Shown here piece after piece: positions 1-62,100 of a stretch of 64,000 nt of DNA. The notes beneath the pieces are model-generated. The model worked only from the letters and a program-made list of their open reading frames with translations. It made no database searches and was not told where the DNA came from. Made by a program: the position numbers and the translations under genes. Each line of letters opens with the position of its first letter. Within the stretch, counting starts at the first letter, position 1. The stretch is taken from NCBI GenBank assembly GCA_001724265.1, contig MEDY01000043.1, positions 1 through 64,000 on the forward strand. The letters are read 5' to 3'. Source of the stretch: Rhizaria sp. SCN 62-66 (Eukaryota).

Positions 1-1331
1 ACGCCGCAACTGCAGCCGCGGCGCACGCGGCACACAAAACGCACTCCGCATAGCTCCACTGCTCCGAGCACAACAGCGGCAGACGCAGACGTGAGGGACG
101 CGAGGGGGACATCTGCCTCGCAGGTTACCTCGCGCGGGGCCACGGCGGCGGCTGCGTCCGCGAACGTCGCCCCGAAGGCGGCGCGCGCAGCGGCCCAGTC
201 CGTACCGGCAAGCGCGGGCAGTCGGCCATCCCCAGCGCCGCCGCTGTTCCTGCCGTCGCCGCCGCCGTCGCAGTCGCCGTTGTCGGCGCTGTCGCCGGCG
301 CAGCCGCGGGTTCGCGGTGCGCGTGTGAGCAGCCGGCCGAGCCGCGCGACGCTCAGCGCGTCCTTGAACTCGTCAACCGCGCCGAGCGTCGCGTTCGCGT
401 TCGCAATCGCGGTGCGCTCGCGCGCTGCGCTCTGCGTGAGGAACGTCTTGAGCAGCTCGAGCTGCGCAGCGTACGGCGCGACTGCGAGCTCGTTGAAGGA
501 CGCAGTGCGGGTCTGCAGCTAAGCGAGCGACACTTCAGCGCGCTTGCGCAGCGCGGTCGTAAGCGCGGTCTCCTCCTCGAGCTGCTGCGTCAGCGTGGCG
601 ATGCGCGGGGTGAGCGTGGCAGCGTGGGTGCGGAGCTCGGTGTGTGTGTTTGTCGGCGATGGTGCGGCAGTTGTGGCCGCGGTGCTCGCCGTTGAGGACG
701 ACGCAGTGGCCGCAGAAGACGGCTTCGCACGTCTCGCACCAGTACATCATGGGGACGGGCTCGCCGTGTTTGTGGCAGGTCTGCGCGCGCGCGCGTGGGA
801 AGAAAGCAGTGAGAAGACAACGTGTCGCAAACGAGTGTAGCTGTGAGAGTTATCATTGGAACGTGCTCAGAGATGATGCGTCATGTCTAAGATTCGAAAC
901 AACGATGATGCAATATTTAGCACTAAAATAAAGCATGGAAAATAGTTCAAGGACGTACGCTCAGGGTGTGCAATGAGGACGCTGTCACGGCGGGTGCGGC
1001 AAGTGTGGCACTTTCTGAAGACTCTGACGATGATGCAGTGGCTGCGGGACTGGCTAAGCCTTGCAGCTCGCTCTCTGACTGTGTTGGAAAAGCGGGATGG
1101 GTGGAGGGATCGCAAACACAATGGTGTCGCTTGGTGTTGTGAATGTCTGTCAAGTGACTGGCAGTGTGGAGATGCGAGTTCGATGAAACGGGGGAGAGAA
1201 GGTTTTGGGTTGTGCAAAGAAATATCAACACGTACCTGCAAACATGCCTCACAGATGCGCGCGGGACGCTGTCCTGCAAGGGTGCGGATAATCTTACCGC
1301 ATAGCGCACAGCTGGATACTGCGCTCGCCAT
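1..1331 (-). CDS. B-box zinc finger + coiled-coil protein (TRIM37-like architecture), 3' end outside window; contains one frameshift and one in-frame TAG
   Basis: Exons 1331-1236, 1078-959 and 780-<1, with GTACGT..AG introns. The B-box reads CHKHGEPVPMMYWCETCEAVFCGHCVVLNGEHRGHNC. After a frame slip in the (GT)n run at 640-649 the frame reads TELRTHAATLTPRIATLTQQLEEETALTTALRKRAEVSLA[TAG]LQTRTASFNELAV..., coiled-coil like and open to the window edge. The start exon is uncertain. Confidence 0.7.
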
Positions 1332-5581: not shown

Positions 5582-8433
5582 TTAAAGGTCCTATTGTTCC
5601 TCCTCCCGATTGAGAGTCATAAGCCGGAACCCAGCGAGCGTCGCCACGAGCCTGTTGGCGAGCACTCGACTGCGCTTGGCCACGCCCGCGCCGTCGGCGG
5701 CCAGCACGACGCGCAGGGCCGGGTGGATGCTGCTCGCCACAGCGGTCTTCGTGGCGGTGTCATAGGCCGTGGAACCGAAAAACACAGTCACCGTTTCTGC
5801 GAAGTAGGCAGCCAGAACTTGTTGTGGCGAGTCGGCTTCGGCCTTGAGCAGCGCCAGTACTTGGCCGCCGCCGCACAGCAGCGCCGGGACGTCTTTGTGT
5901 TCGACGGCGAGAAGCTGCCGCAGCACCCAATAGAGCGCGGCGACGAGGTCCAGCTCGCCGGCGTCGACCGCGGCCGCGACGTCCGCCTCAGAGCGCGGCA
6001 GCAGCTTCTGCAGCAGCGCCACCACGACCGCGACGTCGGCCTCTTTGAGCGCGCCGCGCTGTCGCGGCAGGAGCAGGCCCAGGAAGGACAGCGCGTGCAG
6101 CAGCGCCCCGCCGTCGGCCGCCGTGGCCACAACGCGCAGTGCCAGCGCGGCGGCCCCGGCCGCGCCGGGCGCCGAGGCCAGGTCGTCGCGCGCGGCCTCT
6201 GCGGCGGCCCACGGCATGCCCGCCGCGCCCGGGTCAAGCTGCCCCAGCGTCTGCAGCAGCAAGTATACGAACACGCGGTGCGCGCGCGCTGCGGCGGCGT
6301 TCACGGCGCCGTCCGCGGCGGGCGCGGGCGGCTTGTGCGCGAGCGCGAGCAGCGCGGGCAGCGCGGCCACCAAGGGCTTGCTGGCGAAGCAGCCCGTGGG
6401 GCGCGTGTGGTCGCCCCGCGCGGCCGTGCGGTGCGTGCTCATCGCAGCACCGGCGCTGCGGCCGCTGGCGCTCTGGCCGCGCAGCGCGGCGCGGCGCTCG
6501 GCCACGCGCAGCGCGTTGAAGCGCAGCAGCACGGCCGCGGCAACGGCGTGCGGCCACGCGCGCGGGGCCGCGCCGGGCGGCCGCTCACGCAGCCCAGGGC
6601 GCCGCCGGCAAAGCCTCCGCCGGCGAAGGCTCCGCTGGCAAAGCCGCGGCCGGAGTGCGCGAGGAAGGCGGCGCAGAAGGCGTCGCAACTGCACCACAGC
6701 AGCGCGTCGTCCGGGTGCGGAAACAGCGGCGCCGCTGCGGCCACTGGCGCACCCTTGCTTTTCCTCCCGTCAGCGGCGCCGGCTGCGGCTGCGGCCGTGG
6801 CTGCAACTGGGACCGTGAGCGGGCGGTGCGGCAGCGGGGCGAGGCGCGCGAGCCCCGCCATTGCGGCGGGCCGCGGGACGCCGACGCGGACGTCGGCCCG
6901 CTCTGAGGGCGGGCCGCCAAAGGGGTCGAAAGGCTGTGCTGACGCGCCGGCGGGGACAGCGCGCTCGAGGCGGCTGGCGCGCGGCCGCGGCGTGCGCGGG
7001 ATGACGGGCCCGCTCGTCACGCCCAGTCCGAGCCCAAGCCCCGTGCCGAGGCCCAGGCCACCTTGCTGCTGCTGCTGGGGCGGCAGTGGCGGCGGCGGCG
7101 GACTGCCAAAGCCGCCCCATCGGGGGGGCGGACTGTTGAGGGCCATGGCGGGCGTCACGGCCTGCCCCGCGCTGCGGAACTTGGCGTGGGAAGCCAGACG
7201 GACTGCAGCGCGGGCAGCGCCCCAGCCGCGGCAGCCGCCGCCGTTACCGTCGTCGTCGAACTCGTCGTCGCTCAGGACCCTCTGCTGCACGACGTCCGCG
7301 CTGTCGTCGGGCGCTGCGCCGTCCGCGCCCGCGCTCTCGTCCGCGCCAACCGCGGCCGCGGCGTCTGGTGTGACGGCGACCGCGGCGGCAGCAGCGGGCG
7401 TGAGCAGGTAGCGCGCGTCGTCGCCGGTCATGAGCGCGTCGGCCAGCTGCGAGAGGCGTGTGAACACAAAGCCCGCGGCCGGCCGCGACAGCGCAAACCG
7501 CGGGGACACTTGGCCACTGCTGCAGGAGCCGACGTCCAGAGCTGCGGTGTCCAGAGCGGCGGCGTCCAGAGCGGCGGCGTCCAGAGCGGCGGTGTTCAGA
7601 GACGTGGCTGAGGCGACTGTCGGCAACGTGCGAGAAAGACCAGGGACAACGGGTGCGCTAATGGGGGCAACTGGGCCGTGGTTGTCGCCGAAGGAAAAAC
7701 CAGCTTTGAGCGCACTCGCGGTCGCGTTAGCGGCTGCGTCAGAGGGGGCAGCGAAGCTGGTGCGGGGGACGAAGCTGAAGCCCGTCGCGGTAATCGAACT
7801 CGTGGGACCCATGCGGCTGAACGCATTGTTGATGTCGACGCGTCCGTCTTTGCGCGCTGCGGCGCCAGTGCCAGTGCCAGCGGAAGCAGCGAAAGCGGCA
7901 GCAGTCGAGCTTGTTGATAATCGCGTGTCGTGGTCGTCGCAAACGAGGGCGGCGTCGCGCTCCTAAACCGTGATGCCCAGGGAGGCCGCGGCGGAGCTAG
8001 CCACTGTCGCCGCGGGCACCTGTCTGGCCGGGTGCGCGGTGAAGCGCGCGAGGTAGGCGCTGAGGGGCTTGACTGCGCGGAAGAGCTGCCGGTGCACGGT
8101 GAGGACGAGGCGGAAGCGCGAGAGCTGAAACAGCGCCTCGGCCGCGGCCACGCGCGTCAGGTCGTCGGCGCTCTCGAGGAGCGGGAGTACGGTCGCGGCC
8201 ACGTCGTGCGCGGCGAAGAAGCCGCTGATGGCCTCGTCGAGCGCCGCCGCAGCCGCGCTGGAGACAGGGCGACCGTCGCGCGCAGTGGTGTCGAGGCTAG
8301 CGCGGTGCCGGCCTAGCTTGCGCAGCGCGGCGGGCAAGAGGTTGATCTTGGCAAAAGCAGTAGTGCCGCCATCTCCACTGGTCGCCGCGAGCGCAGACAC
8401 CGCCGCCTCCAGGTCCAGCAAACACTTCGTCAT
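5582..8433 (-). CDS. Uncharacterised ~950-aa protein with ARM/HEAT-like helical N- and C-terminal parts and a low-complexity middle
   Basis: ORFs 7963-8433 and 6439-7812 share a frame and are separated only by TAG (7963-7965). A 1-nt frame slip near 6575-6585 joins ORF 5591-6697, which reads ..REEEQ[TAG]DL[TAA], with TAA at 5582-5584. Confidence 0.6.
7534..7601. repeat. 15-bp coding tandem repeat, ~4 copies, encoding (T/A)AALD
   Basis: GTCCAGAGC(G/T)GCGG(C/T) units; the minus-strand translation is TAALDAAALDAAALDTAALD. Confidence 0.85.
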
Positions 8434-10185: not shown

Positions 10186-12121
10186 ATGGCCAAGAAGAAG
10201 AACTCTAGCCAGCTTGGCAGCGCAGCGCCTGCAAATGAGCCGCTTATGGCTGACGGAACGGTAAGTTCACGGGACTCGGCTCTTTTGCCGTGCCACGTCG
10301 ACACACCTTTCGCGTGCATTTAACCACGTTAGATTTCATCTTTTGTTGTTGCTGCGTGCTATATCATAGCCACTACGTTATAATAGCTTTATTTTCGCTG
10401 CTTGAACCTCACTGAACTCTTTCTTTTGTCCTGTATTTTAGTTCCCTGAAACCGATATCAACGGACTGACCCCGCCCGTTTCGCAGAGCGCTGGCCCTGC
10501 GGGCAGCGCGCGCGGCGTGCCGAACTACAACTACCATGCCTCCGTGGAGGACGACGATCTGATCGCGCCCGATATCGAGTCGATCAACGTGACTGGCGGC
10601 AAGTTCGCCGAGCTTGACCCGACGATGTCGAGCCTGGGCGGCATCGGCGACAAGGAGTCGGAGCCGCTGACATGGTGGCAGACTCTCGCGGTGCACTACC
10701 AGTACGTCACCGTCGGCTTCTTCTACGGCTCCATGCAGCCGCTGATGTACCCGATCTTCAACCACATGCTGGGCATGCAGTCGTACGCCGTCAAGGGCGG
10801 GTACCAGGTGATGACCATCTGGTGGACGCTCAAGATGTTCATCGGCGCCTTCTCCGACGCCTTCCCCATCATGGGCTACCGCCGCAAGCCGTACATCCTG
10901 ATCGGCTGGACGCTGGCCGTGGCGATGACCGTGGTGACAATCACGCTTGGTCAGCCGCACAAAGGCGACGCCGCGTGGCCCTACCTCATGTGCTTCTCCG
11001 CCATCAACTTCTTCTACATCATCGCCGACGTGGCGATGGACGGCATGGTCACGGACCTGGCGCAGCGCGAGAAGGAGTCGGACCGCGGCAAGCTGCAGTC
11101 GGGCATCTACTTCGCGCGCTTTATTGCCATGGCCGTCACCTCGGCGCTCATGGCCTTCGGCTTCTCCGACGAGCGCTACGGCGGCACCTTCAGCTGGTCC
11201 TTCGACCTCCCCGACTACCTGCTCATCCTCGTCGGCATCGGCCTGCTCGGCCTGTACCCCTACTACCGCATGGAGGAGGAGGGCGGCTACCAGCGCCAGT
11301 CGTACACGGGCCAGTTCGTGAAGCTGTTCAAGCGCGTGCAGCTCAACGCCGTGTGGCGCGTCGTGTGCTTCTCCTTTTCGGTCCACTTCTTCGCCTACAT
11401 CTCCAACGCGGCGTCGTACGACATCGTCAAGCAGTGGTGCAACACTGAGCCCTGGGTCAACGGACTCTTCTCCAACGTCCTGTCGAACCTCGTCATCGCG
11501 GGCGGCATCTGGATCACGAAGAAGTACCTGCTCAACACGTCGTGGCACAAGATCCTCTTCTGGTCCATCATTGGCATGTCTCTGCTGGCCTACATTCCTG
11601 CCATCATCGTCGACCTCGGCGTGACGCGCTCGCAGTACTTCTACGCCGCCGCGCCGCTCGTGTCGCAGCTCGTCATGGGCATCTTCTTCATCGTTTCGTC
11701 TTACTGCGCCGTCGAGGTCGCCGAGCCGGGCTCCGAGGCCATCATGTACGGCCTCATTACCACCGTCGGCAACCTCACCGTGCCTTTCACCACGCTCATC
11801 TCCTCCATGCTCGCCACGGCCTTCAACCTCTACGACAAGGACGGCAACCTGCACGACGACGACGCCGGCCGCAAGCGCATGCTCGCGCTCGACACGGTCA
11901 TCTTCTTCCTCCAGCTCTGCGCGCTTCCCACGCTGCTCATCCTGCCGCAGCAGAAGGCCCAGATCCAGGCCCTTATCGCCACCGGCGCGCGCTCCTACAA
12001 GATGGCCGTGCTTGTCGTCGTGCTCCTCACTTTCTGCATGATCTGGTCGCTCATGGGCAACTTCATGCAGATCTTCGAGGGCACCGCCTGCCTTAAGATC
12101 GTCGGCGGCTCCGGCTGCTAA
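10186..12121 (+). CDS. BT1-family folate/biopterin transporter (MFS)
   Basis: Exon 1 10186-10260, intron 10261-10486 (GTAAGT..CAG), exon 2 10487-12121 ending TAA. Contains the BT1-type motif WTLKMFIGAFSDAFPIMGYRRKPY, IADVAMDGMV and many hydrophobic segments. Confidence 0.9.
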
Positions 12122-16691: not shown

Positions 16692-19094
16692 ATGCATACC
16701 GCGCGGTGCTGGCCGTCACTCTTGCCGTGCATGGTTACACTTGCGTTTGCGTGCTTGTTGCTGCTCGCGGTGCTCTCCCCCGTCTGCGGCGCCGTGGTGA
16801 ACGCCGTAACGGGTCCGCGCGTGAGCGAGTCCTTGCGCGTGGCGCCCTCGCCGCTGAGCCTGGAGGACGACATGGCGCACCTGGCCTGGGTCTCGCTCAT
16901 CGGCGTCGTGCTCATGGCCTTTGTGCTGCTTTTTGCGTACATGCTGCGCAAGACTAAGGCGCGCTGGCTGCCCGACTCTTCCGTCGCGATCATCGCCGGC
17001 ACTGTCATCGGGCTCGTCGTGTACCTCTTTGACCCGGCGCTGGTGACGCCCTCGGACGGCTCGCCCTCGGTCTTCGCCTTCTCGCCGCGCATGTTCTTCT
17101 TCGTCTTCCTCCCGCCCATCATCCTCGACGCTGGCTACTCGCTGAACAAACGTTACTTCTTCTCCAACATCAGCACCGTGCTGCTGTACGCGGGGCCCGG
17201 CGTGGTAATCTCGACCTGCGTCGTGGGACTCGCCGCGCTCGCCGCCTCGCACGTCGGCGTCTTCGGCGGGACCCCGTTCGGGCTGCTTGAGTCGCTTATG
17301 TTTGGCTCGCTGCTCTCGGTCACCGACTCCGTGGCCACCATCTCCATCCTGGGCTCGCCCGACCTGGACTTCGACTCGTCGCTCTACTCGGTCGTCTTCG
17401 GCGAGTCCGTCTTCAACGACGCCGTCGGCATCCTCGTCTTCGACACGCTCGCCAAGTACTCGCGCGCCAACGCGCTTGCGTTTGACTTCCCCTCGCTGTC
17501 GGTGTCGCTGCTTGTCGTCTTCGCGGGCTCCATCCTGCTGGGCATCGCCGTCGGCTTCCTGGCGTCGTTCGTGTTCAAGAACCTCGACCTGCACGACTAC
17601 CCACACTTCGAGTTCCTGCTTATCTGCCTCTTTGCCTACACGGCCTACACGCTCGCGCTCGTGATGCAGCTCTCTGGCGTTATGTCGCTTTTCGTGTGCG
17701 GCGTCGTGCTCGGACACTACAATTGGCACAACATCTCCACGCCGTCCAAGACCTCCACTAAGTTCGGTTTCAAAGCCTTCTCCGTGGCCTGCGAGATGGC
17801 CGTGTTTGTGTACCTGGGCATCACGTTTACTTTTTCGCTGACGCCGCACTTCCACTTCCGCTGGTCGCTGCCGGGCTGCATCGTGGCCTTCATCCTCGTG
17901 TGGCTGGGCCGCGCCTCGTTCGTCTTCCCTATGTCCTGGCTCGCAAACACCTTCGTGCGCGCGCAGCCGTTGACGTGGCCCATGCAGGTCATCATCTTCG
18001 TGTCGGGGCTGCGCGGCGCCGTGTCGTTCGCGCTTGCGCTCAATATCCATGGCGAGCACTTCGACGTCATGATCACCACCACGCTCGCCATCGTCATCAT
18101 CACGTCCCTCGTTTGCGGTTCCTTCACCGACCGCATCATCCGCCACTACAGCGCGCAGATTAAGGCCGCGCGTGCCGCCGCCGCCGCCATTGCCGCGGGC
18201 GCCGACGCGGGCTTGGGTGCGACCGCGATCGCGATGAGCGCCGTCTCGGGAGCATCGTCGGGAGCCACCTCGCAGCAGCAGCAGCAGCAGCTCAAGGGTA
18301 TCTCGCGCGGCGGCGCGCGCGGCCCGGGCCTGGCGCTGGGGCTTGACCTGACTGACGCGCCGGGCAAGGGCGACGGCGTCCGCCGCAGTGAGAGCTGCCG
18401 TAGCGCTCCTGGCTCCGGCTCTGGCTCTGGCGCTGGCTCCAGCTCCGGCTCTGGCTCTGGGTTGCGCAAGCCGTTGGCGCCGCGCCGTACGAACAACGGC
18501 CAGGCTCATCTGCAGAGCGGCACGATGCGCAACGCGGTCCACGGCAACGGGCGCAGCAGCGGCGACGACTACGACTGCTACGACGACGATGACGACGACA
18601 GAGTTGCAGGAGATGACGACGATGTTGACCTCGACATCGATGTCGAGCTGGACCTTGAGTCCCCGCCACCGCGCCGCGTTTCACAGCGCGGGGGCTTGCG
18701 GCGCGGTGGGGGCAAGCGCGGCGTCGCGGGGGCTGGTGCGTCCGGTCCCGCGGCGCCGGCTGGTATCGCGACGGCGGTCGTGCGCGTCGCGCACGACGCC
18801 GACGCCGACGCCGACGCCGACGACGGCGAGGGCGACGCGGCGGCCGAGTCGGCGCGCGTGGCGCACCTGGCGCGCATCCTGCACGGCGACGCACCCGCGG
18901 GCGACGCGGCCGGCGGCGATCACGACGGCGAGGTTGACAGCATCGGCGCCGGCGACGGCGACAGCAACGGCGAGGGCGAGGGCGACGACGGCGCGGCCGA
19001 GGGCGGCCTGCAGTGGAAAAACTTCGCCTCGTGGGGAGCATTCGAGCGCGCTGTGCTGCAGGAGTATTTCGGCGGCCCTGCATCTGCCGATTGA
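16692..19094 (+). CDS. Na+/H+ exchanger, CPA1 family (NHE8/NHX-like), with an acidic low-complexity C-tail
   Basis: Motifs FFFVFLPPIILDAGYSL, TDSVA, VFGESVFNDAVGI, SGLRGAVSFALAL; multiple TM segments; ends TGA. Confidence 0.93.
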   Translation: MHTARCWPSLLPCMVTLAFACLLLLAVLSPVCGAVVNAVTGPRVSESLRVAPSPLSLEDDMAHLAWVSLIGVVLMAFVLLFAYMLRKTKARWLPDSSVAIIAGTVIGLVVYLFDPALVTPSDGSPSVFAFSPRMFFFVFLPPIILDAGYSLNKRYFFSNISTVLLYAGPGVVISTCVVGLAALAASHVGVFGGTPFGLLESLMFGSLLSVTDSVATISILGSPDLDFDSSLYSVVFGESVFNDAVGILVFDTLAKYSRANALAFDFPSLSVSLLVVFAGSILLGIAVGFLASFVFKNLDLHDYPHFEFLLICLFAYTAYTLALVMQLSGVMSLFVCGVVLGHYNWHNISTPSKTSTKFGFKAFSVACEMAVFVYLGITFTFSLTPHFHFRWSLPGCIVAFILVWLGRASFVFPMSWLANTFVRAQPLTWPMQVIIFVSGLRGAVSFALALNIHGEHFDVMITTTLAIVIITSLVCGSFTDRIIRHYSAQIKAARAAAAAIAAGADAGLGATAIAMSAVSGASSGATSQQQQQQLKGISRGGARGPGLALGLDLTDAPGKGDGVRRSESCRSAPGSGSGSGAGSSSGSGSGLRKPLAPRRTNNGQAHLQSGTMRNAVHGNGRSSGDDYDCYDDDDDDRVAGDDDDVDLDIDVELDLESPPPRRVSQRGGLRRGGGKRGVAGAGASGPAAPAGIATAVVRVAHDADADADADDGEGDAAAESARVAHLARILHGDAPAGDAAGGDHDGEVDSIGAGDGDSNGEGEGDDGAAEGGLQWKNFASWGAFERAVLQEYFGGPASAD

Positions 19095-21246: not shown

Positions 21247-23325
21247 ATGAGCTCGTCTCAGCGGAACACGTCTGCGGTTGCCCGGCGTAATCAGCGCTTT
21301 GCAGCACATGCTGAGCTTGCGGCCGTTCCTGAGCCTGCGTCGGCGGCGACGGACGCGCAGACTCCTTTCTTCAATACAGGTCCTATCGTGGGCACGTGCA
21401 CCGTGATGTGCGATCCTCGCGAGGCGAAAGACCGTGAGGAGTCGCGCGACCTCTCTGTGTTTGAGCGCATTCCCGGTACGGGCTCGTCTGAGCACGGTAA
21501 CACACCCCTCGTGGACTACGATCTGGCCGTGAAGAAGTTCAAACGCCCCGCGGCAGGCAAGAGTATTGACCCGTCGACAGTGCGCACGCCCGAGACGCTG
21601 ACACGCGTCGTAAACTACCTCGTTTTTTCCGTGCTGGACCGCACCGAGGTTGACTTCCGCGAGGTTTTCCTGTTTCTCTCTGACCGCTTCCGCGCTGTGC
21701 GCGGCGACTTTTCGTGCCAGGGCATCAAGACCGTTGCGCACGTGTCGGCGCTGGAGACGATCGTGCGCTTCCACCTCTACTCGATGCACGCGCTGCTGGA
21801 CGTGCCCGACGTTGCGGCGACGCAGAACATTACCGAAGGCACCAAGGCGCTGACCTCACTACTGGAGCTTTACGACGACGGCGTCCCGTCACCGCACGAG
21901 GATGAGTTCCGCGCCTACAACCTGCTTTTTTCCGTGCAAAAGAAGCGCGGCCACGAGCAGCACACCATGGCGCCCATCGCCGTGCTCGCCAAGCTCTCCG
22001 CGCGCTCGCTCGAGTCCCCGCTGGTGGAGTCGGCGCTGGGAGCGCTGACCGCGATCCACGCCAACGACTGGGCACGGTTCTTCAAGTCCGAGCTGCCTTG
22101 CCTGCCCTTTCTGCAGGCCTGCGCCGTGCTGCCGTCGCTGCCCGTGCTGCGCAAGTGCGCCGTCGCGTCCATCGCCTTCGCCGTGCGCAGCGACTACTCG
22201 CTGCCGCAGCTCGCCACCACGCTGCTGCTCTCGGTGCCCGACGCGGCCGCGCTGTGTCAGAGCCTCGGCCACGGCGTCCGCTTTGCACCCTCGAACCTGC
22301 CACCCGACGCCGACGTCGACGCCGCGCGCGACGCCTGCGCCGGCGACTGCTCCGCCTGGTACTTTATACGCACCAAAACGGACGACGACTGGGGCGTCGC
22401 CGCGCCGCCGCCGCGCCGTCTGTTCGCGCTCGACGCGCTCTGCATCGGCCTCTCGCGCGCCGACATCGTTGCGCCCGGCGGCGCGGCCGACATGTAGCGG
22501 CCCGATGCGCATGCTCCTCTGTTTCCGCCGTCGCAGCGCGCTCTGCCGCCGCCACCCCACCAGCAGCAGCCGCTGCACGCCCATGCTCCCATGGCTGCGG
22601 CCCGTCCCGCACCTGCTGCGGCAGCGACGGCCGCACCCGAAGCGGCGGCGTTGGCCCTCTCTGCACCTGCGCCCGTGCCTGCAGCGCAGGTGCGCGCGTC
22701 CGCCCCAAGCGCCGCTGCTGTGGACGCCGGCGCAGCCGCGCTGAGCGGACTGGGCAGCGGCACCTTTGTGCCCGTGGCCGCCGCGGCGCCCGCCGACGCC
22801 GACGCCGCCCTGGGGGCGCGCCGCATCATGAAGGTCCGCGGCGCCGCCGGTGCGCCGCCCACCGCGCCTGCCGCGACAATATACCCATCCCCCGCTGCTG
22901 CGGCCGCTGCGGCGTTGGCGCTCACGGCGGGCGTCCCCGTTGCGTCCGCGAAGCCGGCGCCTGCCGCTGCGTCGGCCTCCGCGAGCTCAGGAGCCCGCGC
23001 GGCTGTCGCCGCTCAGCCTGCGACCGAGGCCGAGCATGCGGCCGCGATCGCCGATGCCGAGGCGGTTCAGCGCAAGGCCGCGCTGCTCAAACAGCAGCTG
23101 CGCGAGCGTCTGGCCGCGCAGATCCAGAGCCAGAGTCAGCACCAAGGCCAAAACCAAAGCCAAAGCCAGGCCGTCTCTTCAGCGGCCACTGCGTCCGCCG
23201 CAGCCCCGGCGGGCTTTGCGGCGGACTTTGCGCTATCAGCTACAGCGGAGACGCTGGCAGGCCGCCGTGTCATCATCACGACGTCGCGCGCCGCCAACGC
23301 CGCTGCCGCTGCCGCTGCCGCTGCC

Positions 23326-23370
<45 letters not shown>

Positions 23371-26300
23371 GCGGTTGCTGATCCCCCAGCCACTCCTGGC
23401 GCCCCCGCGACTTCACAGGCGCGCCCGGGCCCCGCTGCGGCACTCAACCTGGCCGCAACCGCGCCTTTCCACTCCGCAACCACTGCTGCAGCTGCGGCAC
23501 GCGCGGCGACGCCGCTCGCGGACGTGCTGGCCGAGCTGTCGAGTCCGCAGGCCAGAGGCGCCGCGAGTCTGGCCGGTTTGCCGCTCGTCCCCGCGCCCGT
23601 GGCGCGCTCCTCCACGGCGTCCGCGGCAGGACCTGCGACGGGGACTGCCCCAGGGAACGCGGTCGCGTCCACGGCTGCGGCTGCTGTGTCCGCCCCCGCG
23701 AGCGCGGCGTCTGCGGCGTCCGCGGCGCTCGCTGCCGCGCTGAACGCGCTGCTGGCTGCGCGCGGCGCCGAGAAGGCGCGGCAGCGCGCGGAGCGACTGG
23801 CATTGCTGCACGAGGAAGAGGCGCGCCGCGCGGAGGAGCTGCGCATGGAACAGGAGGAGCTCCGCGCGCGGCAGATGGCCGAGCGCCAGCGCCGCATCGT
23901 CGCCGCGTGCACACGTCTGGGCGAGGGACTGGAGCGCGCCGCGGCGCAGGTCGCCGTGCGCCGCACGCGCGCGCTGGCCGCCGACGGGCTGCGGCGCGTG
24001 CGCACCGTGTTCCGCCGCATCGCGCGTAGGGAGCAGCTCGCGTGGCAGTTCCGCGCAGGCCGGCTGCTCGCGCGCTGGGCCGAGGCCAACGCCGCCAGCG
24101 TGCTGCTGCGCCGCCGCGCGGCCGGCGCCGCTCACGCCGTGCTCGCCTCGATGCACTCGCGCGAAAACGTCGCTGCCGAGGCCGCAGTCGCGCACTCGAC
24201 CGCGGTCGAGGAGGCCGATGTGGCGCAATCGGTATGGGAGCTCGCAGTCCGTGTTGCCCCACGCCCGCTCGTACTGTGCTGCCTGCCGCCTACGGGGGCG
24301 CAGGTGGAGATGGGCGCGCTCGTCGACTGGACGGCCGCGCGCGCGGTTTGGGCCGTGGCGTCGCGCAATGGCGCCGCACCCGGCGCTGTGACGCGCCCAC
24401 TGCCGCTGCCGTGGCTGCTCCGCGCCGCGCTGGGTGCCGAGTCGCGCTATCACGAGCGCGTGCTGGACTCGTACTTCGGTCCGCACGCGCCACCCGCGAA
24501 CTTGCCCGCGCGACAGCAGCTCGAGGCCGTGGCTCGCGACGCCGTGCTCTGCGCGCGCGCGCGCGGCCGCACGCTGCGCGTCACGCTGGCCGTCTCGCGC
24601 GCGCTGCTGCTGCCGCGCGAGGGCGCGCGGCTTGACGGTGCGCCGAGTCACGACGGCACTGGCTGGGAGGCCGACTACGACGGCGTATCAACGCTTGCGC
24701 TTGCGGATGCGATGCATCCCACACAGGGCGCGGCCGCAGCGGCCCTCGCTGCGCGCGCGGTGGCCGCGCGGCTCGGACTGACCTTGGTCCCCGCGACCGT
24801 GCCTGCGCTCTGGGGGCCCGACTGCGTGCAGCTGTTGGCCGATGCGCGCGACGGGGACAACAACGCCGACTACTTTGATGATGTTGACGTTGATGGCGCG
24901 GATGAGAGCGATCTTGATGGAGCATTGGGCGAGGGCGATGGTTACGCCGATGATGGCGAATACAACGACGCCGAAGACGACAGCGCAAATGAAAACGTCT
25001 ACGACCGCGACTGGGACGCCCGCGCCAACGACGGCGACGACTACGGCGGGGCTGCTGATGGGCAGTCGATGATCGACGTTGACAGCGACATGAACGGCGC
25101 AGATGGCCACGACGACGGATTCGGTGACGAGGCGGAGGCTGAGTCTGAGCACATCGTCGTGCCTGCATGGAGCATGTACTCCGAGAATGGCGCCGAGCAA
25201 GACGACCTGGACGACGATCACGACGACGCACAGCCGGGCTCGATGCTTTGGGACGGCGTGCGCAGCGACGACGCGCACGAGCTCGGCGCCCCTGCCGCTG
25301 TCCCTACTCCGACACTCGCCGTCGCAACCGCCGCCGGCGCCGCCGAGGCGTTCCCAGTGTTCGCTGCGGACCCTGCAGCGCCGGTGCCGCGGCTCGAGGG
25401 CGCGCAGACGTCGATCCTGCCCGTGGCCTCGGCCAGCGGCGCGGCGTTGTCAGTGCCCATCGCGGTCCACACCACCGTCGCTGACGGGCCCGAGGCCGGC
25501 TCGCCGGAGCAGCCCGAGAGCGTGTTCCCGACCGGCGCGGAGGAGCCCGCGGACATCTGCGTGGCGGTGCTGTCGCAGGTGTTCTCGGACCAGGTCCTCG
25601 AGCTGGCTTCGCGCGCGGCGCCGCGCGAGCTGCTGCTGTGGAGCGAGTCGCTGCGCGCTCGTTTGGCGCCCGACGCGGCGCGGCTGCGCGCGGTCGAGGC
25701 CTCCGTGGCCGACGCCGCGGCCGCGGAGGCCGACTTGGCCGTGCAGCTGCAGCGGCGCGCCTCGGCGCTGCCGCAGGGCGCGCTGGCGCTGCGCGATGTG
25801 AGCGGGCTGCCCGCCGTGCGGCCCGCGCCCGCGCTGGGCGGCGTACTGACCGCGCGCCCGCCCGCCAACGCGCCGCTCGTGGTGCTGTGCCCCGTCACGG
25901 CGGCGTTCGCGGCGCAGCTCGCCGCGCTGCCCGAGGCGGCGCCCGCGGATGCGCCCTCGCGCGCGCGCGCGCTGTCGCGCCTCGCGAGCGTGGTGGGCCT
26001 GGCGCTGGGCGTGGGCTCCGCCGCGGTGTCGTCCCACGCCTCGCCCTGGGCGCAGGTGCGCGTGGTTCCGCTGCTGGCGGCCGCTGACGCCGCGGGCTCA
26101 CCCTTCGCCTCCGAGTCGGTCGTCGCGGCCGCGCTCGAGTGGGCCGCCGCGTTCGTGCCCGCGCGCCCGCTGCTGCGCCTGCTTGCCTCCGCGGCGCTGC
26201 TCGACCGCGCCGTGCTGGCCTACGACAACCTCGTCACCGAGGCCGACGCCGACGCCGCTGCCGGCGCTGCAGCGGCCGCCGCGTCTGCCGCGCGCTTCGC

Positions 26301-26817
26301 CTCGCCACAGGCGCGCAAGCGGCACCGCGATGTCGGCCGCAGCGCGGCGCGCCTGGCCGGCCTTGTCCTTGAGGTCGGCGAACGCGCTTTCGCCAGCCCG
26401 CCCGCGCGCGTCGCGGGGCTCACCACCACTGCCGCCGCGCGTGTCGGCGCGGAGATGCCCGTTCCCGGTCTCGCCAGTGCGGCCGAGGCCGACTGTGAGA
26501 AGGCGCCCGCGTCGCCAGAGGGGCTCTCGCCCGAGCCCTCGGTTAAGCGCGGGCGCGGCGCGGCGACGCCGCTGCGGGTCGGTGTGCTTGCCGCCACGCC
26601 TCGTCTCACCGTTGGACCTGCATTCGCTGCGTCTGCGTCCGCGTCCGCGTCTGCCTCTGCGGACGCTTGTGGCGCGTCGCTGTCGGCGCGGTTGGACGCG
26701 GCGGCGGCGCTGCTGGCGACTGAGTGGGCGCGCACGCAGGACCTGGCTGAGTCGCTCGAAGACGTTGATCTGCCTGCGCCCACGCTCGCGCTCGACCTCA
26801 GCGAGTACGGCTGGTGA
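21247..26817 (+). CDS. SAC3/GANP family mRNA export factor, ~1,856 aa, read through an in-frame TAG at 22495-22497
   Basis: SAC3/GANP core motifs GTCTVMC..E..RE, AVKKFKRPAAG, VRTPETL, FLSDRFRAVRGDF..Q, EFRAYNLL. The frame continues past TAG directly into ORF 22591-26817, which has a coiled coil and an Arg/Trp helix, and ends TGA. Confidence 0.85.
23297..23372 (+). repeat. GCY trinucleotide run encoding a poly-Ala tract in SAC3/GANP
   Basis: gccgctgccgct... followed by (gct)n. Confidence 0.9.
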
Positions 26818-30329: not shown

Positions 30330-30419
30330 GTGATGAAGCGCGAATGCTGAGACGTAGCTGCAGTATGAAGTTGACGAACGAAGAATCTTTTACGGAAGCT
30401 TCGCTTACGTAAAAACGAT

Positions 30420-52463: not shown

Positions 52464-55400
52464 TCAATAAAGCGTTATGTGCCGTGTCATCGCTTTGATG
52501 CGGGCGTGGATGCCTGACAGCAATTCGAGTCGATCCATCGATGCATCTGTGGGGTCGAACGCCACCTCCGTCGTCGAGAATGGACGGTGTACGAGGAGGT
52601 ACTTGGGCGGCATCACGGCACCAGGAGCGAGCAGCTCCTTCTCTGCCTTGGCAACAGCGGCGGCAACTGTAGATGATTCATGTACTCGCATGCGGTTGCT
52701 GCTGATAACAAACGTCTTTACGCCTGATGCTTGCGCAGATCCGGGGTTAAGCGCGAACGCCTCTTCCTCGGCCAGCACGCCCATCTCATCACTGGCGCGC
52801 AGAGAGACCATGCCGCGACCGCGGATCCAGCCCTGTTGCAGTCCGTCTGACGAAAGCACTGCAACAGGCGAGGTGGAGATCGACACCACGTCGCGGATCA
52901 TTGCCATGCGCTGCGCGTCGTTGGCGCCAATCAGCAGCGGTGGCATCACGTTGCTCGCCATCGACATCAGAGGGAAAAATCGCATCACGGTGCTGTAGAA
53001 CAAGTCTTTCACAAGCGGATTCGCTCCCGACACTCCGTCGCGCCGCTTAAACACACTGATCTCCTTGCGCGCCGCCTCCCACGTCTCGGAAAGAACTTGG
53101 CTCACGTCCTGGTGCTGTGCGCAAAACAGCAGCGTCTGAACCATGGGTGAGTGAATCGGGCTCAGCCGCGCCGAGCGCTGCGCCGAGCGCATCGCCAGCT
53201 CGTCCGCGAGCGCTTCCTGGAAGTTGCGCAGCACACGGCACATGTGCGTGGGAACGACGACGTCGACGGGCAGCGTCTGCACGAGCTCCGCGACGCGCGA
53301 GCCTGCCTTGAGCTTCTCCAACGGCGTCACCTGCACCACAAGCGCGGGCGCGCGCTGGTCATTGCCCTTGGCAGAGCGCAGTGCTGAGGGCGGGAAGGCC
53401 TCCTCGGCGAGGAACGTGCCCGCGTGCAGCGGTAGTGTGACCTTGCGCGCGCCCAGGTCCGACGTGTCAAGCAGGTCATTGAGCGAGATGTCGAGCTGCG
53501 CCCATCCGAGGCTCAGCTCTGTCACGCCCGGCAGCCCGCCCACGGCGGCCGCGCCGGAGGGCGGGGCGCCGAGGCTCGCGGGGGCCAGCGCCTGCCGCGG
53601 GTCATTAGCCATGACCGTGAGCTCGAAGATGAGCGACGTGTTGCTGCGGTCTGTTTTGATGAGCATCTGGCTCCAGTCGTCATTGTCATTCCCGCCGGGC
53701 GCCGAGGCGGCGTCGGGGAACAGCCACTTGGACTGGTCTTTCTTGGTGTTGCAGGCACCCTTGGCGATGTGGAGGTTCGACACTGGCATCCGCTTATCAA
53801 ACAGGCAGCAGCGCACGCGGTAGCCCACCGCCAGCGCCGTCGCAGCCGTATCCAGCGCGGGCATGTTGACCGCGCTGAGCAGCGAGACCTCAACCGCGGC
53901 GCTGGGGTCCTTGGCGCCCCACACACCGAGCTCGTCGCCCTGTAGACTCGCGGCCGGCGCGCTCGACAGCCACTTGTCGGCCACGCTCTGCAGCCCAGAG
54001 GCCACGGTCACCGCACCGCCAGTCACAATCTCGGCCGCCGCGCCGGAGCCGGCTCCGTTGCCAGTGCTGGTGAGTGACGAGGCTGCGGAGACGTCGCCCT
54101 TGAGCAGCGTGCCCGTCGCTGCCCACAGCGCGACTTCGTCCACAACGGCGGGACCGCAGGGCAAGCCCTTGGGCAGCGCCGCGGCGCCGTGCGCGCCGCG
54201 CTGCGAGCGCACGGGGTCGAGCACGGCCGCGCCGGCGCCCAGCGCGGTGGGCGGCGCGTGCCGCGTGAGGTCGAGCGGGACCGGGACAAGCGCGCCCGTC
54301 GCCGGGTCTGTGCGCAAGTGGCGGAAGCCGAGCCCCGTGTGGTCGAGCACGGGCACCAGGCGCGACGCGAGCGAGAAACGCGGCGACGCGTCGAGCACGG
54401 CCAGCAGTGGCACACGCGCGTGGCTGGGCACGGCGGCGAAGAGCTCCAGCGCGGCGAGTGGCGGCGCCAGACGCGCGCGCACAAGCTTGTGCAGCAGCAG
54501 AGTCGCGCAATGCAGCGCTGCGGGCGCGCCCGCGGCCAGCGGCTTAGAGGCGAGTAGTGCCCAGAGCTGCGTGAACTCACCGGGCGACACGGCGCCGTCG
54601 TCGTTGACGTCAGCGAGCGCGGTCAACAGCGCCAGGTCCGTGGCAGTGAAGACGCAGCGCGGCGCGGGCACGGTCACCGTCACCACAGGCACGCGCGCCG
54701 AGGCGCCCGGGAAGAGCGTGGCGGGCAGCGGGGCCGTCGTGGCCGCGGTCGCGGAGCGGAACAGCAGCTGGCTCACCGCGTCGTCGCTGAGGGACGAGTC
54801 GAGAGCAGTCGCCGACGCAGTCGAGGGGTGGCCATACGCGGCGCCGGCGGAGGCTGCAGCGGAGGACGAGGAGGACGATGACGGTGCGGCGCCAATCCAG
54901 ACGTCGTGCATGGAGGTCTCCGGTGGGAGATCGTGCACATACGCGTCGCCGCAAAGCGTCTGCACACCGAGCGCGAACTCTGCCGCGTCCAGCTCGCCGT
55001 CTCCATTGGTGTCGCACGCGCGGAAGAAGGTGCTGAGCCCGGCCGCGTCGGCGCCCTCGGCCGCATGCGCCGCGAACAGCAGCCGGTACAGCGCGGCGAA
55101 GAGCGGGAACGGGACGACGCTCAGCGGCAGCCCCTTGCCGCCCGCGGCCGCGGCCGAGACGCCCAGTCCGCGCGCGGCCCACGCCCGGCTCGACGCGCCC
55201 CCGGGCTACGACGCCGCGACCGCCGCCGGCCCCCTAGTGACCGCGACGGCAGGGGTGGCGTGGTGGGCCGCGAGGGCGTCTGCAGTGACTGGCAGCAGCG
55301 CGCCGGACGCAAGGAGAAAGTCCGTCCCCGACTGCGGCATCGCGAGCCCCAGCGCGGCCATGGCGCGGCGCACGTCGGGCACGAGCAGCCCGCCGAACTG

Positions 55401-55850
55401 CGCGCGGCCGAACGCAGCCGTGCACAGCGCGTACGCCTGCGACAGGAACGCAAGCTCTTCCGCGATCAGCCGCGGCAGCGCGCGGGCCAGCGCAGGCGGC
55501 AGCGACGCGCGCTCGCGGAGGTACGCGCTCTCGGCCGCGCACGACGGCGCTACGGCCACCGCGCCGCTTGCAGAGTTCGCGGAGTTAAGAGAGGGTTCAG
55601 CGCGGAAATTTGCGTAGTAGCTGCGCAGCTGTGCCAAGTGCGCGTGTTGCGGCGTCAGCTCGCAGTAACGGCCCTGTAGTCGCTGCTCGAGGGTCTGCAA
55701 ATCGCTCGGCAGCGTCGGCTTCTGCTGAAGCTGAGGCTGCGGCTGATACGGTTGCTGAAGCGAATACTGCTGTTGCTGTTGCTGTGGCTGGGGTGCGGCG
55801 TACTGCGCCTGGGGAGGAAACGAGATGCCGCGGCTCTCCGCATACCCATC

Positions 55851-55887
<37 letters not shown>

Positions 55888-57137
55888 TGCTTTGGGGGGA
55901 TGGCAGCAAGTCCTGCGCGCAGCTCCGCCTCCGCTGCGGTGTAATCTACACGCCCGTTGCCGTCGACAGAGACGAGATGCGAGAGCGCGGCGAGCAGCGC
56001 GGGCGTCACGGCCCCCGCAGCCGCGGCGCCGCCGGCCTCGTGCGTGATGACGACGGAGAGCGCTCGCAACCGCGCCGAAACCTGCTCGTGTAGCGTAAGG
56101 AAAACGCGTGCGAAAAGGTAAAACGCGTCCGGGGAAAGTCCGCGCGCAAGCGCAGCCGCCGCGCCCGCCGCGCCGCCCGCTGGGGGCGCGCCCGCGACGT
56201 CCATGTCGAAGGTGAGGCGGTAGAGGCGCGCGAGGAACACTTCGCTGTAGGGGTAGCCGAGCGTGCGGACGAGCGCGACGAGCTCCGGCAACGAGAGGTG
56301 GCCGTCGGCGTCGGCATCGAAGCGTGCAAACGACTGCCGCAGCCGCCACGCCTCGGACGGCGAGAACGCGTGCAGCTCGCCGGCGCCAGGGCCCGCGCTT
56401 TCAACAGCAGCGCCAGCAGCACCAGTGTCGGTATTCGCGGGAGCGGCAGGGGTGGCATCGGCGGCGGCGGCGGGCTGGAAAGCAGTGTTCATGGGTGAAA
56501 ACGCGGTAAACCCATGTGCTGGCGCATTGGAGGACAAAGCCGTCGCGCCATGACCGTTCTGAGGTGCCGCGTTGCTGTACGGGGCAGCGTTGTTGTTGTA
56601 AGCGTTGACTGCTGGAGCGGCGGCGGTGGGGCCTGCGTAGGTGGCGACCGCCAAGGCCGTAGTAACGGGCGCCTGCACGGGGTCGAAGTGGAGGTAACTG
56701 CCGGGCGGGACCGCAGCCGCGCTGCCGCTGTTCGCGGCCACAGCAGCCTGATCCGCATGTGGGGCCGGAGAAGCCGAGGCGGGCGGCGGGGCCAGGTGCG
56801 CGTGGAACGAGGGCGCGACGGGCGAGCCGGGGCCTCCGACGGGCGGCAGCGCCGGTGCCGCGGCCTGTGTGCTGGCGGGCTGCGCGGCGGAGTTTGCGGT
56901 TGCTGCTGCAGGAGGGTAGAATGGACTGTTATAGAAGGGTGCGATGTTGCTGGCATCCACGGGGCGCGATAGCGTGGTGGGAGGCAGGCCGGACTCGCTC
57001 GCATAAGACGGCTGCAAGTAAGCGTACGTAGGCGCGTATTCGTACCCTGCAAGAGGCTGTGGTCCGGGGTAGTTGTGTGGAGCTTGGACTTGTGGAGTCA
57101 GCGCCTTCTGCGAGCCGCTACCGCCATGAAACGACAT
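52464..57137 (-). CDS. NPHP1: EF-hand + nephrocystin-1 homology domain protein, ~1,557 aa, read through an in-frame TAG at 55206-55208
   Basis: EF-hand loops DADADGHLSLPE, DTNGDGELDAAE and DVNDDGAVSPGE. The C-terminal motifs RVRCCLFD..VSNLH, KWLF, LIFEL, ELSLGW, LHAGT and HRPF match the NPHP1 C-terminal domain as I recall it. ORFs 55206-57137 and 52464-54965 are in the same frame; ends TGA. Confidence 0.78.
55852..55890 (-). repeat. CAG repeat encoding poly-Gln (13 residues)
   Basis: (tgc)n on the + strand inside the NPHP1-like gene. Confidence 0.9.
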
Positions 57138-59102: not shown

Positions 59103-62100
59103 ATGAGTGCCAGCGAATAGTCTGCAGCCGCGATACTGGTGCGGTGCCAGGAAATCTGCGACTACCGTCCGCGTCCGCCGGCGCCGTCTGAGAGCGAGTT
59201 CCGCCGCATCGGCGTGCTTATCTGCAGCGCATGCAAGGCTTGCGAGTTTCCCGGTTGCGACGACGGACACATCGACACCGGCAGCCTGCTCACAGTGCCT
59301 CTGGGCAACGGCCATGCTGCCTGCGCCGCGTGTCTTGCGGCGGGCCACCTCACCAGCACTGACCTGGCTGCGCCCTGGTGCGAGGCTTGCCGCTACTGCA
59401 ACATGCTGCCTTGCGTCGTGCACCACTGGCTGCTGCGCGATGCCACGCTGGTTGCCGCCATGGTCCGCTTCGACGCGGCGCTCGCGCGCGGGGCGTTCCC
59501 CGACGCCGACCCCAGCGACCCATCAGCGCTCGTGATCGCGCTCACCTGCGACACATGCGCCGCGACAGAGATCCCCATTACGGCACCTGGATCAGACGCC
59601 GTCCTTACGCGCCGCCTTTTTGCCCAGCTCTTGCGCGCGGCCAAGGCCTCGGTAGCCACCGGTGCATCTGTTGGCGCTACAGCAACATATGTTGCTAATG
59701 CTTCTGCTAACGAATCTGTGAGCGCGTCTGCTGATGGCGCACCTTGTCCGGTGCCGATTGTCCACTACCTGCCCGCGTGCGCCGGCGCCGTGCGCGCGCG
59801 CGAAGTGTTGATGTTGCGCTCCGAGCTGGTCTACGCGCTCGAAACGCTGCGCGACACGCCGCGCATGCCTCTGCCGGCCGCGCTGGCGCGCCGCTTCCGC
59901 GCCCCGCGGCGCTGGCGCACTCACCCTGCGCTCGACGCCGCCGTCGCCGCCGCGCGCGCGTTCCGCGGTGTGCAAGACCTGCTCTCCCCGCTGTCTCCGC
60001 TCTCGCCGCTGTCTCCGCGCAGTCCGCTGAGCGCACCCAACGCGCTCACTGCGCCCGGTGCGAATGGACCGCGTTCTCTCACAGTCACTCCGGTCGGACT
60101 GGCCGTGGACAAGGGCGCGGCCACGGACGCCGGCGCGCTGCGGGGGGCTGAGTTCGCGCTGGCCGACGCGTCTGTTCCGTGGCCGCGGCCGGTGTGGCGC
60201 AGCGGCGCATTCGCAGGTCAGTTCGGCGACGCCTTCCTGCGCAACACGGAGCTAGAGGGCGGGAACGTTGCCGCGTCGCTGGCGTTTGTTGCGCGCGCGC
60301 TGCGCAGGCTTGCCCCGCATGCGCGCGCACTGCTGTCGCTGCCGGAACATGTCTACGCCGCCGCCGAGGCCGCTGCGGAGGCGCTTGAAGGCGCGGTCGT
60401 GGCGGCGCGCGCGCTCGACGCAGTGGCCGCGCTGCCCGAGGAGCCGCTCGAGGAGCTGTGTGTTGTGCGCGGGCGCGTGCAGCGGCTGCCCGTGAAACGT
60501 GGCGCGGCGGTGAAGCAAAGCGCTGACGCCCAGGCCCAGGCCCGCGGTGACGGCAGCATCCTCAATGACGAGGAAGGCGAGGGCTGCGACGGTCTGCTGT
60601 CTTCGGTCGCTGCGGTGCGCGTCGCGAGCGGGAGCCGTATTGGCCCCGGCTCCGCGTCTGACAGCGAGAGCGCGGACGCCAGCGACGACGACGGCGGCGC
60701 CAGCGACGAGTCCGACCTCGAGAGCACCGACTGCGACGGTGCCGACGACGACAGTGAGGACGACGATTGCTCCGACGACGAAGACGAGCCGCGCGAGAAC
60801 CGCGCTGTGGGCGGTGCAAAGACTGTGGCGGCGGACGGTGATGTCGAGGCGTTTTGCGAGTCGTACTGGCGCGCTGTGTGGGGTACTGACGCGGCTGCGG
60901 CAGCGGATGATTCACACGCTCCCGCGGACGACGGGGCTGATGATGAGACCGCCAGTGCCGACGGCGAGGACGAAGATGATGCGGCGATGCCGCTCTCTGC
61001 GGCGGGTGCCGAAAGCGACGACGACGGCGACGGTTTGGGCGGCGAGGATGAGAAGGCTGCCGCCACTGCGCTCTCAGCGCGTCGCTTGCGCGCGCGCATG
61101 GGCCTCTCGACGGCGTCTGCGGCCGAAATGAACCGACGGCTGGACTCGGCAGCGCAAGCGCGGCAGCGCAGTGGCGTGGGCGCCGCGGAGATCAAGGACC
61201 GCGCGCTGCTGCTTCTCGTGCGCGCGCACGTCCGGCGTCTGCGCGCGCTCGCGCCAGGTGAGCTGGCAGTGTTTCCGGGCGGCTATCTGCGCGAGGGCAG
61301 CCGCGGCGGCCACGTGGTGATGCACATTGCCGTGCGAGGCCGCTCTGACGGGCTGCCTCTGCTGACGGGTACGACGACGGGCGCTGACGCGTTTGACATC
61401 ATCACGTGTAACACAGGAAACGGGCTTGCGCACCATCCCTTTAAGCTCTCGCCGACGGGCCCGCGCTTTGTGACGACGCTGTGTTTGCCCAACGTACCGG
61501 CTCCTCGCGCGTGTTCCGCGGCCGCGTGGGCCGTTGCTCTGCGCGGCGCCGCATTCCGCTCTTCAGACCACGACCCCGACGTTGTGTATCGCGTGCTGTT
61601 GCCGTTTCTTGCCGGCGGACCCAACGGCGGGCTCCTGCGCGACCGCGGCACGACGGAGCCCGCCGCCTTGCACGGTGTTGCGCGCACACCGCAGCGCGCG
61701 GGCATGTGTTTCCACCGCGCGTCTCTTGAAGCGGCGCGCGCTGTGATGGCGTACCATGGTGCAACTGGGCGCGATTGGTCGCGCGTCACCTATCTGATCC
61801 GCTTCTTGGCACTGCAGGACGCTGTCGCAGATCTCCGCGTGTGCGCTGCACTCGGCGCGGCGCTGAGCGAGTCGTCAGACATCCCGCTGCTGCGTCTGGC
61901 CACGAAGCAGACTGCGCGCGCGCTTGCACGCGTGATGCCCGACGATGCGCGCGTTGCGGAGGCGCTGCGTAGGACGATCGTTCAGATCAACGCCGCAATC
62001 GAGGCCTCGCCCGCGCCCGCCGCGTTGCGCTGGCATCCCAACATGCTTGCCGCCGAGTTTCACGCGCTTTCAAGAACTGACTGTGAAGCTCGTTCTGTGC

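Follow-up and report, generated by a model that had tools for sequence, protein, structure and literature searches.

The locus described here raises the question of whether UAG is read as an amino acid in the organism that carries it. The window, by which we mean the whole stretch of 64,000 nucleotides at positions 1 to 64,000 of contig MEDY01000043.1 (assembly GCA_001724265.1, Rhizaria sp. SCN 62-66), holds several genes whose reading frames appear to run on past a TAG codon. An original prediction, made from the sequence, proposed that seven TAGs in six genes are in frame (one of them, at 19808, tentatively), that UAA and UGA remain stops and that UAG encodes glutamine. We consider it likely that UAG is read as sense and that UAA and UGA serve as the terminators.

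In-frame TAG codons and their orthologues

At least three genes, encoding a SAC3/GANP protein, an EF-hand protein and, at 5582-8433, a product of no known family, each carry one UAG inside the reading frame, and a B-box/coiled-coil protein gene is probably a fourth. The genes and codons concerned are:

21247..26817, + strand, SAC3/GANP-domain gene of 1,856 codons with a TGA end at 26815-26817; Pfam SAC3_GANP at amino acids 54-341
22495..22497, + strand, in-frame TAG, codon 417 of the SAC3/GANP gene; orthologue P0042 is continuous here
52464..57137, - strand, EF-hand protein gene of 1,557 codons with a TGA end at 52464-52466; Pfam EF-hands on either side of the TAG
55206..55208, - strand, in-frame TAG, codon 644 counted from the ATG at 57135-57137; spanned by P0006
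5582..8433, - strand, gene without known family; ATG at 8431-8433; TAG at 5591-5593, then TAA at 5582-5584
7963..7965, - strand, in-frame TAG, codon 157 of the gene at 5582-8433; P0048 is one open reading frame across it
5591..5593, - strand, TAG two codons ahead of the TAA at the gene end; true stop or read-through relic
519..521, - strand, in-frame TAG within the coiled coil of a B-box protein, whose gene extends beyond the window; placed in frame by composition only
59118..59120, + strand, TAG five codons past the ATG at 59103; codon 6 or the 3' end of an intron

The SAC3/GANP gene has an orthologue, P0042 (1,835 amino acids), which also contains a SAC3_GANP domain and aligns over all 1,856 codons, up to the C-terminus. 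Of the aligned residues, 199/349 are identical ahead of the TAG at 22495 and 573/1296 past it. The conserved anchors IVAP and RAL are separated by exactly 20 residues in both proteins only when this TAG is counted as one residue; the P0042 residue opposite it is Gly, within a variable linker. A DNA contig from run X3, which belongs to a different study, shows 0 differences from the window over 20841-22939, and the N-terminal open reading frame ending in ...GGAADM at 22495 is recorded in 2+5 contigs from Logan and ENA assemblies. The idea that the SAC3 gene terminates at 22495 and that the downstream frame is a second gene was based on an Atlas comparison, which likened the initial 416 amino acids to SAC3D1 proteins of 349-438 amino acids, and on a pyrimidine run with an AG 3' of the TAG. 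It is ruled out by P0042, which aligns with all 1,856 codons. The loose end of a run X5 contig at 22488 was treated as coming from another organism, its sequence being absent from the window at up to 3 mismatches; the X5 contig records aligned with the window are mostly partial matches.

For the EF-hand gene, P0006 (1,349 amino acids) was recovered by a full HMMER search whose query was a 1,200-residue segment containing the TAG at 55206. This protein aligns as a single block that includes the TAG position, with an identity of 62% by the HMMER search and 64% to the first sequence of the alignment; 218/381 residues are identical upstream and 598/897 downstream. The flanks DFLLASGAL (upstream) and LPLS.VPFPLFAALYR (downstream) are kept, the residue opposite the TAG is again Gly in a variable linker, and the gene and P0006 end at the same alignment column. 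Full-length homologues P0007-P0009 were also found and are more distant. In the 1,559-amino-acid translation that starts at 57143 the TAG is amino acid 646, and a Pfam EF-hand at amino acids 706-723 lies between it and the next ATG. The G+C content at third codon positions (GC3) in this frame is 0.83-0.97 in the 90-nucleotide windows flanking the TAG. P0002 and P0003 begin at the first ATG past the TAG, as recorded in 6+1 contigs (Logan and ENA). A search with 561 amino acids around 55206 was dominated by low-complexity words and recovered just the window's own fragment.

In the gene at 5582-8433, P0047 and its cluster mate P0048 (732 amino acids) join in a single open reading frame the 130 amino acids that precede the TAG at 7963 and the long part that follows it (protein P0046). 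The linker that carries the TAG is not alignable with P0048, and the frame that restarts past the TAG is recorded in 2 contigs. This gene also has a frame break at ~6520-6545 (- strand), and no intron accounts for the shift. In P0046, which comes from a different assembly, the frame continues past this point and includes 13 extra residues (SCEAWLGAALGPD); because these are conserved in the relative's P0048, the window would have a gap of ~34 nucleotides at ~6520-6545, caused by an error of assembly or by a deletion in this allele. Whether the gene ends at TAG 5591 or at TAA 5582 is not decided by aligning its C-terminus with P0048.

Orthologues thus run unbroken through all three sites at which a comparison could be made (22495, 55206 and 7963). 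Judged by these alignments, the frame across the UAGs of the three genes is continuous, conserved and of equal length in the relatives. Unbroken orthologues with conserved flanks indicate that the three TAGs are internal to single genes, and the conservation downstream, being at the protein level, indicates that the downstream parts are expressed as protein. The frames stay open for 913 codons after the TAG at 55206, 1,439 after that at 22495 and ~790 after that at 7963, although stops make up 2.5% of off-frame codons.

The TAG stops are real and reproducible across independent assemblies. Open reading frames end or restart at 22495, 55206 and 7963 in 7, 7 and 2 contigs of the Logan and ENA assemblies, and this recurrence means that a stop is truly present there, as the gene caller would otherwise have extended the frames. 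Contigs from public runs were aligned with the window over 7000-26999, and among the differences listed there is none at 7963-7965 or 22495-22497; among the RNA-run contigs listed, none spans 22495.

The TAG at 519 has GC3 values of 0.80-0.93 in its frame on both sides and is followed by 172 codons with neither ATG nor stop. Immediately upstream is a Pfam zf-B_box match (535-849), whose frame is shifted at a CA repeat: the B-box domain (frame 535-849) and the coiled coil (frame 3-641) part at a ACACACACAC run at ~645-665 (- strand). The window is probably one CA unit short near 650, and an extra unit would join the two domains in frame. The TAG at 59118 may instead be the 3' end of an intron, because the TAGs that precede open reading frames at 10439, 20030 and 31259 are splice acceptors.

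All seven TAGs lie where the original prediction placed them, on the strands it gave. Its claim that all seven are in frame holds for 22495, 55206 and 7963, by their orthologues, and for 519, by composition; 5591 and 59118 are ambiguous. The seventh, at 19808, was rejected as non-coding, since it lies in low-GC sequence with a same-frame TAA and TGA nearby.

Gene ends and codon usage

The gene ends used for the tally of stop codons are:

12119..12121, + strand, TAA stop of the BT1-family transporter gene, one of five TAA ends
15925, 20693, 51680 and 58472, the other TAA ends, in the gene-end tally
19092..19094, + strand, TGA stop of the Na+/H+ exchanger gene, one of five TGA ends
26815, 27103, 30327 and 52464, the other TGA ends, in the gene-end tally

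Eleven gene ends had been put forward as TAA or TGA. Ten of them check out, as 5 TAA and 5 TGA with 0 TAG, and the eleventh, at 5582, is ambiguous, TAG 5591 being the first stop there. With a fifth of stops assumed to be TAG, zero TAGs in ten ends has P ~0.1, too few ends to show that UAG never terminates. The TGA codons at 26815 and 52464 match in position the C-termini of the orthologues (P0042 and P0006), and the TAA ends at 20693 (Abhydrolase_2) and 15925 (ADH-like) lie 11 and 18 residues past the ends of the Pfam domains. On the strength of these matches to orthologue and domain ends, UAA and UGA are taken to terminate.

The TGA end at 27103 depends on an inferred intron of 123 nucleotides at 27296-27174 (- strand; GTACGT...CATAG), which lies close to the 3' end of the gene at 27103-28600 and encloses an in-frame TAG that would pass for the stop in a standard scan for open reading frames. 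That TAG, at 27286, was rejected as a true stop: it sits in the inferred intron, and the gene ends at TGA 27103.

Codons were counted in 13 coding segments chosen by open reading frame and GC3; small exons and the low-GC stretches at ~1500-5500, 8500-10400 and 12200-13400 are omitted from the counts:

in frame, 15,827 codons: TAG 5 (including 5591), TAA 0, TGA 0
off frame, 31,629 codons: TAG 79, TAA 131, TGA 594

Off-frame stops thus make up 804/31,629 codons (2.5%). The proposal that the genes hold no internal TAA or TGA agrees with the count of 0/15,827, a zero that arises largely by construction, the segments being open reading frames bounded by TAA or TGA. That TAG is rare and absent from the longest gene was likewise confirmed (4-5/15,827 codons; 0 in the gene of 6,806 codons). 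The use of TAG-only interruptions as an argument against random decay proved weak: with the codon usage of these genes, 61-64% of nonsense changes arising at random would yield TAG.

The meaning of UAG and the alternatives

The core of the original prediction, UAG as a sense codon, is upheld by the orthologues at three sites, by the recurrence of the TAGs in assemblies and by the TGA ends at orthologue C-termini. UAG would be decoded by a suppressor tRNA with a CUA anticodon or by a near-cognate tRNA, and the release factor would recognize UAG poorly. The same combination of tRNA and release factor has been proposed as the mechanism of other UAG-only codes.

Several observations count against UAG as sense. 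TAG is very rare, at 4-5/15,827 in-frame codons (~0.03%) versus 390 CAG and 69 CAA, and the gene of 6,806 codons has none, although the frequency in the remaining genes predicts ~3 for it (P ~0.02-0.05). No TAG stands at a conserved residue or in a poly-Q run, and hence no amino acid can be assigned. At the end of the gene at 5582-8433, TAG 5591 is the first in-frame stop exactly at the gene end, so UAG may still terminate. The three orthologues of the relatives (3,916 amino acids) contain no TAG, a comparison biased by their having been called as unbroken open reading frames, and broken relatives would have escaped detection as long matches. Contig record 24 from run X6, a polyA-RNA run whose library may hold DNA, lies ungapped over 7876-8287 with one unplaced mismatch. 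As far as the alignment shows, a segment of 57 nucleotides at 8019-7963, which ends in TTTAG, could conceivably be an intron. This assembly is not pristine, with two frame-breaking defects (~6520-6545 and ~650). The window lacks tRNA genes, a Pfam scan of its proteins revealed no eRF1, and the sample comprises only ~13 genes.

The assignment of UAG to glutamine found no support: no TAG occupies a position that is conserved, and Gly stands opposite both sites that can be aligned. Glutamine would be the likeliest residue by precedent only. The TAG-bearing linkers (7603-7962 and 22498-23600) are replaced or much shortened in P0048 and P0042, respectively; in the gene at 5582-8433 the linker has ~190 amino acids versus ~35 in the relative, beside adjoining domains that are up to ~95% identical by eye. 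Linkers replaced next to near-identical domains indicate that disordered regions turn over very fast. The sparse use of UAG (~0.03% of codons), and its restriction to fast-evolving linkers, suggests a young or inefficient reassignment. A more specific reading is possible though doubtful: an early-stage stop-codon reassignment in a GC-rich eukaryote that is not a ciliate, with UAG translated, ~100-fold rarer than CAG and possibly still a stop (5591), and with a residue that need not be Gln, as both alignable sites face Gly.

If this early-stage reading holds, two closely related organisms, of which just one has UAG in frame, would open the first steps of a code change to direct study: the tRNA, the eRF1 and the disappearance of UAG as a terminal codon. 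Low UAG usage together with UAG-free orthologues may illustrate early or inefficient reassignment, which bears on the debate between codon capture and an ambiguous intermediate. In practical terms, gene callers that use the standard code split the genes of this organism at each UAG, and P0002, P0004, P0005 and P0046 are such fragments in public collections.

Among the alternatives, a leaky or dual-meaning UAG differs little in mechanism from UAG as sense. UAG would still be a terminator, context-dependent, with read-through by near-cognate tRNA at internal sites and termination at gene ends, an ambiguous code as in some ciliates and trypanosomatids. C at +4 is the weakest termination context, and three of the four good sites have it. 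The place of TAG 5591 exactly at a gene end, with a back-up TAA two codons on, fits as well, as does a TAG frequency ~100-fold below that of CAG, which inefficient decoding predicts. We nevertheless find this alternative unlikely, as four of ~13 genes would need read-through for most of their length, 0/10 unambiguous ends are TAG, and folding showed no local RNA structure that might stimulate read-through (fold z-scores of +0.3 to +1.3 at five of six sites and -0.39 at 5591).

The TAGs could also be true stops in broken or truncated alleles, produced by recent nonsense mutations or assembly errors, with downstream sequence that has not yet decayed. The frame-breaking gap at ~6520-6545, absent from another assembly, and the CA unit that is probably missing near 650 lend this some weight, and with 61-64% of random nonsense changes giving TAG, the finding of TAG only is not significant (P ~0.15 for 4/4). 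It is very unlikely all the same. The TAGs recur in assemblies of different studies, including the assembly without the frame break, and 3-4 nonsense hits in ~13 genes, each then followed by 790-1,439 open conserved codons, would be a most improbable coincidence.

Still less probable is repair at the RNA level under the standard code, for example by A-to-I editing that turns UAG into UGG (Trp), of the restorative type that acts on premature stop codons in filamentous ascomycetes. The Fusarium genome has ~14,000 genes, and the proportion of affected genes here, 3-4 of ~13, far exceeds that of the 71 edited there (~0.5% on that total). No hairpin at the TAG sites goes beyond shuffled sequences in stability, and nothing points to a filamentous ascomycete: the window has a 6,806-codon gene with Sushi, TIG and Ephrin-receptor-like domains, and the Atlas gives nothing more specific than Eukaryota, without a consistent phylum. 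The X6 RNA contig over 7963 does have its one unplaced mismatch. Editing in fungi favors U at -1, hence UAG, and the available parts of two reports describe the 71 such genes in Fusarium graminearum (PMC11156358, PMC10776026).

Introns in the window provide a reference for the last alternative, that each TAG lies inside a short, GC-rich, in-frame intron and is spliced out. Spliced contigs from run X5 define three GT..AG introns of 151, 213 and 117 nucleotides, with a GC content of 0.36-0.49, and also show a 3' splice site at 10440. We scanned all GT..AG segments of 30-240 nucleotides, of a length that is a multiple of three, containing 519, 7963, 22495 or 55206, and obtained 69 candidates (10, 16, 17 and 26 for the four TAGs), all with a GC content of at least 0.62. 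A donor hexamer like the known ones occurs in only 1 of the 69, and splicing there would delete 74 codons that are conserved in P0042. Introns covering the TAGs are therefore implausible, and the candidates are probably not typical introns. In-frame GT..AG pairs do surround every site, as at 8019-7963 or at 22468-22536 (69 nucleotides, with a pyrimidine run ahead of CAG), and the linker at 7963 is the one that does not align with the relative, but the explanation is scarcely credible given GC contents so far above those of the RNA-supported introns, the loss of orthologue-conserved residues that even the shorter candidates at 22495 (IVAP) and 55206 (LAA.H) would entail, the GC3 of 0.83-0.97 beside 55206 and the X6 contig that passes ungapped over 7963.

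UAG as sense can be set beside known codes, as described in the available parts of the reports cited. In Iotanema spirale (Fornicata) UAG encodes Gln and UAA and UGA are stops, with 204 in-frame UAGs in 126 genes, many of them at hyperconserved Gln positions (PMC5304391). The likeness lies in UAG being the only stop codon found in frame and in genes that end in UAA or UGA; Iotanema has no UAG at a bona fide gene end (PMC5304391), and the ten unambiguous ends here have none either. By contrast, the window holds 4-5 UAGs in 15,827 codons (~13 genes), all of them outside conserved positions, and is GC-rich. In the rhizarian exLh (Sainouroidea) UAG encodes Leu, with 384 UAGs in 71 genes and with UAA as the stop in 56 cases and UGA in 15; in its proteasome genes UAG is the commonest Leu codon (PMC5304391). 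There too, UAG alone has been reassigned in an organism that is not a ciliate, and UAA and UGA have stayed stops (PMC5304391), whereas UAG here is ~100-fold rarer than CAG and Leu finds no support at the alignable sites.

Phyllopharyngean ciliates read UAG as Leu in one clade or as Gln in Hartmannula and Trochilia; their use of UAG is widespread, they have suppressor tRNA genes and UAA is their preferred stop (PMC11687900). They share with the window the reassignment of UAG alone, and some of those cases also come from mined environmental genomes (PMC11687900). The window, in contrast, has a GC content of 50-70%, introns of 117-213 nucleotides, equal use of TAA and TGA (5 and 5) and no tRNA gene. 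In Condylostoma, karyorelicts and Blastocrithidia, two or three stop codons are abundantly sense in ambiguous codes (PMC4967479, 10.1101/2022.04.12.488043, PMC12153298); a codon that is both sense and stop would fit TAG 5591, although here a single, rarely used codon is concerned. Restorative A-to-I editing in ascomycetes resembles the present case in that intact-looking genes are interrupted almost only by UAG, and differs in that its repair is at the RNA level and specific to the sexual stage (PMC10776026, PMC11156358). It is also confined to few genes, ~0.5% when its 71 are set against the gene total given above.

As far as the available parts of these reports go, reassignment of UAG separately, with UAA kept as a stop, is known only from a single rhizarian, a single fornicate and some ciliates (PMC5304391, PMC11687900), and a full-text literature search on UAG reassignment returned no case from wastewater or from a GC-rich organism that is not a ciliate. 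A further independent case, in a GC-rich organism unlike ciliates, would add to the variety of lineages known to be able to uncouple UAG from UAA.

The locus, its genes and a conserved intergenic element

The locus at 20000-27000 is matched in nine of the public runs listed, from six studies, all of them bioreactor, wastewater, activated-sludge or fuel-cell metagenomes. The window is a contig of an uncultured organism, as this occurrence indicates. It is GC-rich, intron-poor and of eukaryote type, with ~90% G+C at third codon positions and, by window composition, a GC content of 0.6-0.8 in genes and 0.35-0.45 between them. A search of genome contigs and viral contigs with the C-terminal 678 amino acids of the EF-hand protein returned no misbinned copies.

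Besides the SAC3/GANP and EF-hand proteins, the Pfam scan of the window proteins recognizes the BT1 transporter, the Na+/H+ exchanger, an Abhydrolase_2 protein, an ADH-like protein, the B-box protein and a YggS-like C-terminus. The open frame of 6,806 codons at 31262-51682 (+ strand) has Sushi, TIG, Ephrin-receptor-like, ELAPOR-type TNFR and EGF_CA matches, all in its final 2,800 residues, and its initial 4,000 residues match no Pfam family. An ATG and a GTACGC donor lie just past 31262, and the 5' end of this gene therefore probably consists of small exons.

Alongside contigs nearly identical to the window, the polyA-RNA run X6 has some (records 25, 26 and 28, at 11639-12007, 16956-17291 and 19867-20643) with an identity of only 90-92%, and one of these passes unspliced through the intron at 19916-20032. 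These contigs may derive from a related species in the same plant, or from DNA or pre-mRNA.

No Rfam family was found in the window, including in an intergenic element of ~150 nucleotides at 9031-9181 (+ strand) that is conserved elsewhere. Two short contigs, which represent one locus, have only this element, 153 nucleotides long, in common with the window (L001 731-882; L002 1203-1354); in this otherwise unrelated metagenome locus it is 93% identical and its flanks are unrelated. A 25-nucleotide stretch of the element had no match in genome contigs or viral contigs. Within the element, TTTAGTTTAAG is followed by GTATGAAC, and there are also a stretch rich in U (ACAUUUGUUUGG) and a hairpin at the end. 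The element may be a small RNA gene present in multiple copies, and a spliced-leader-like RNA may be suggested as speculation. Folding of its + strand is good (z = -3.7), and in DNA runs it reaches a very high k-mer depth, 232 versus ~6 in run X3 and 1,292 versus ~7 in run X4.

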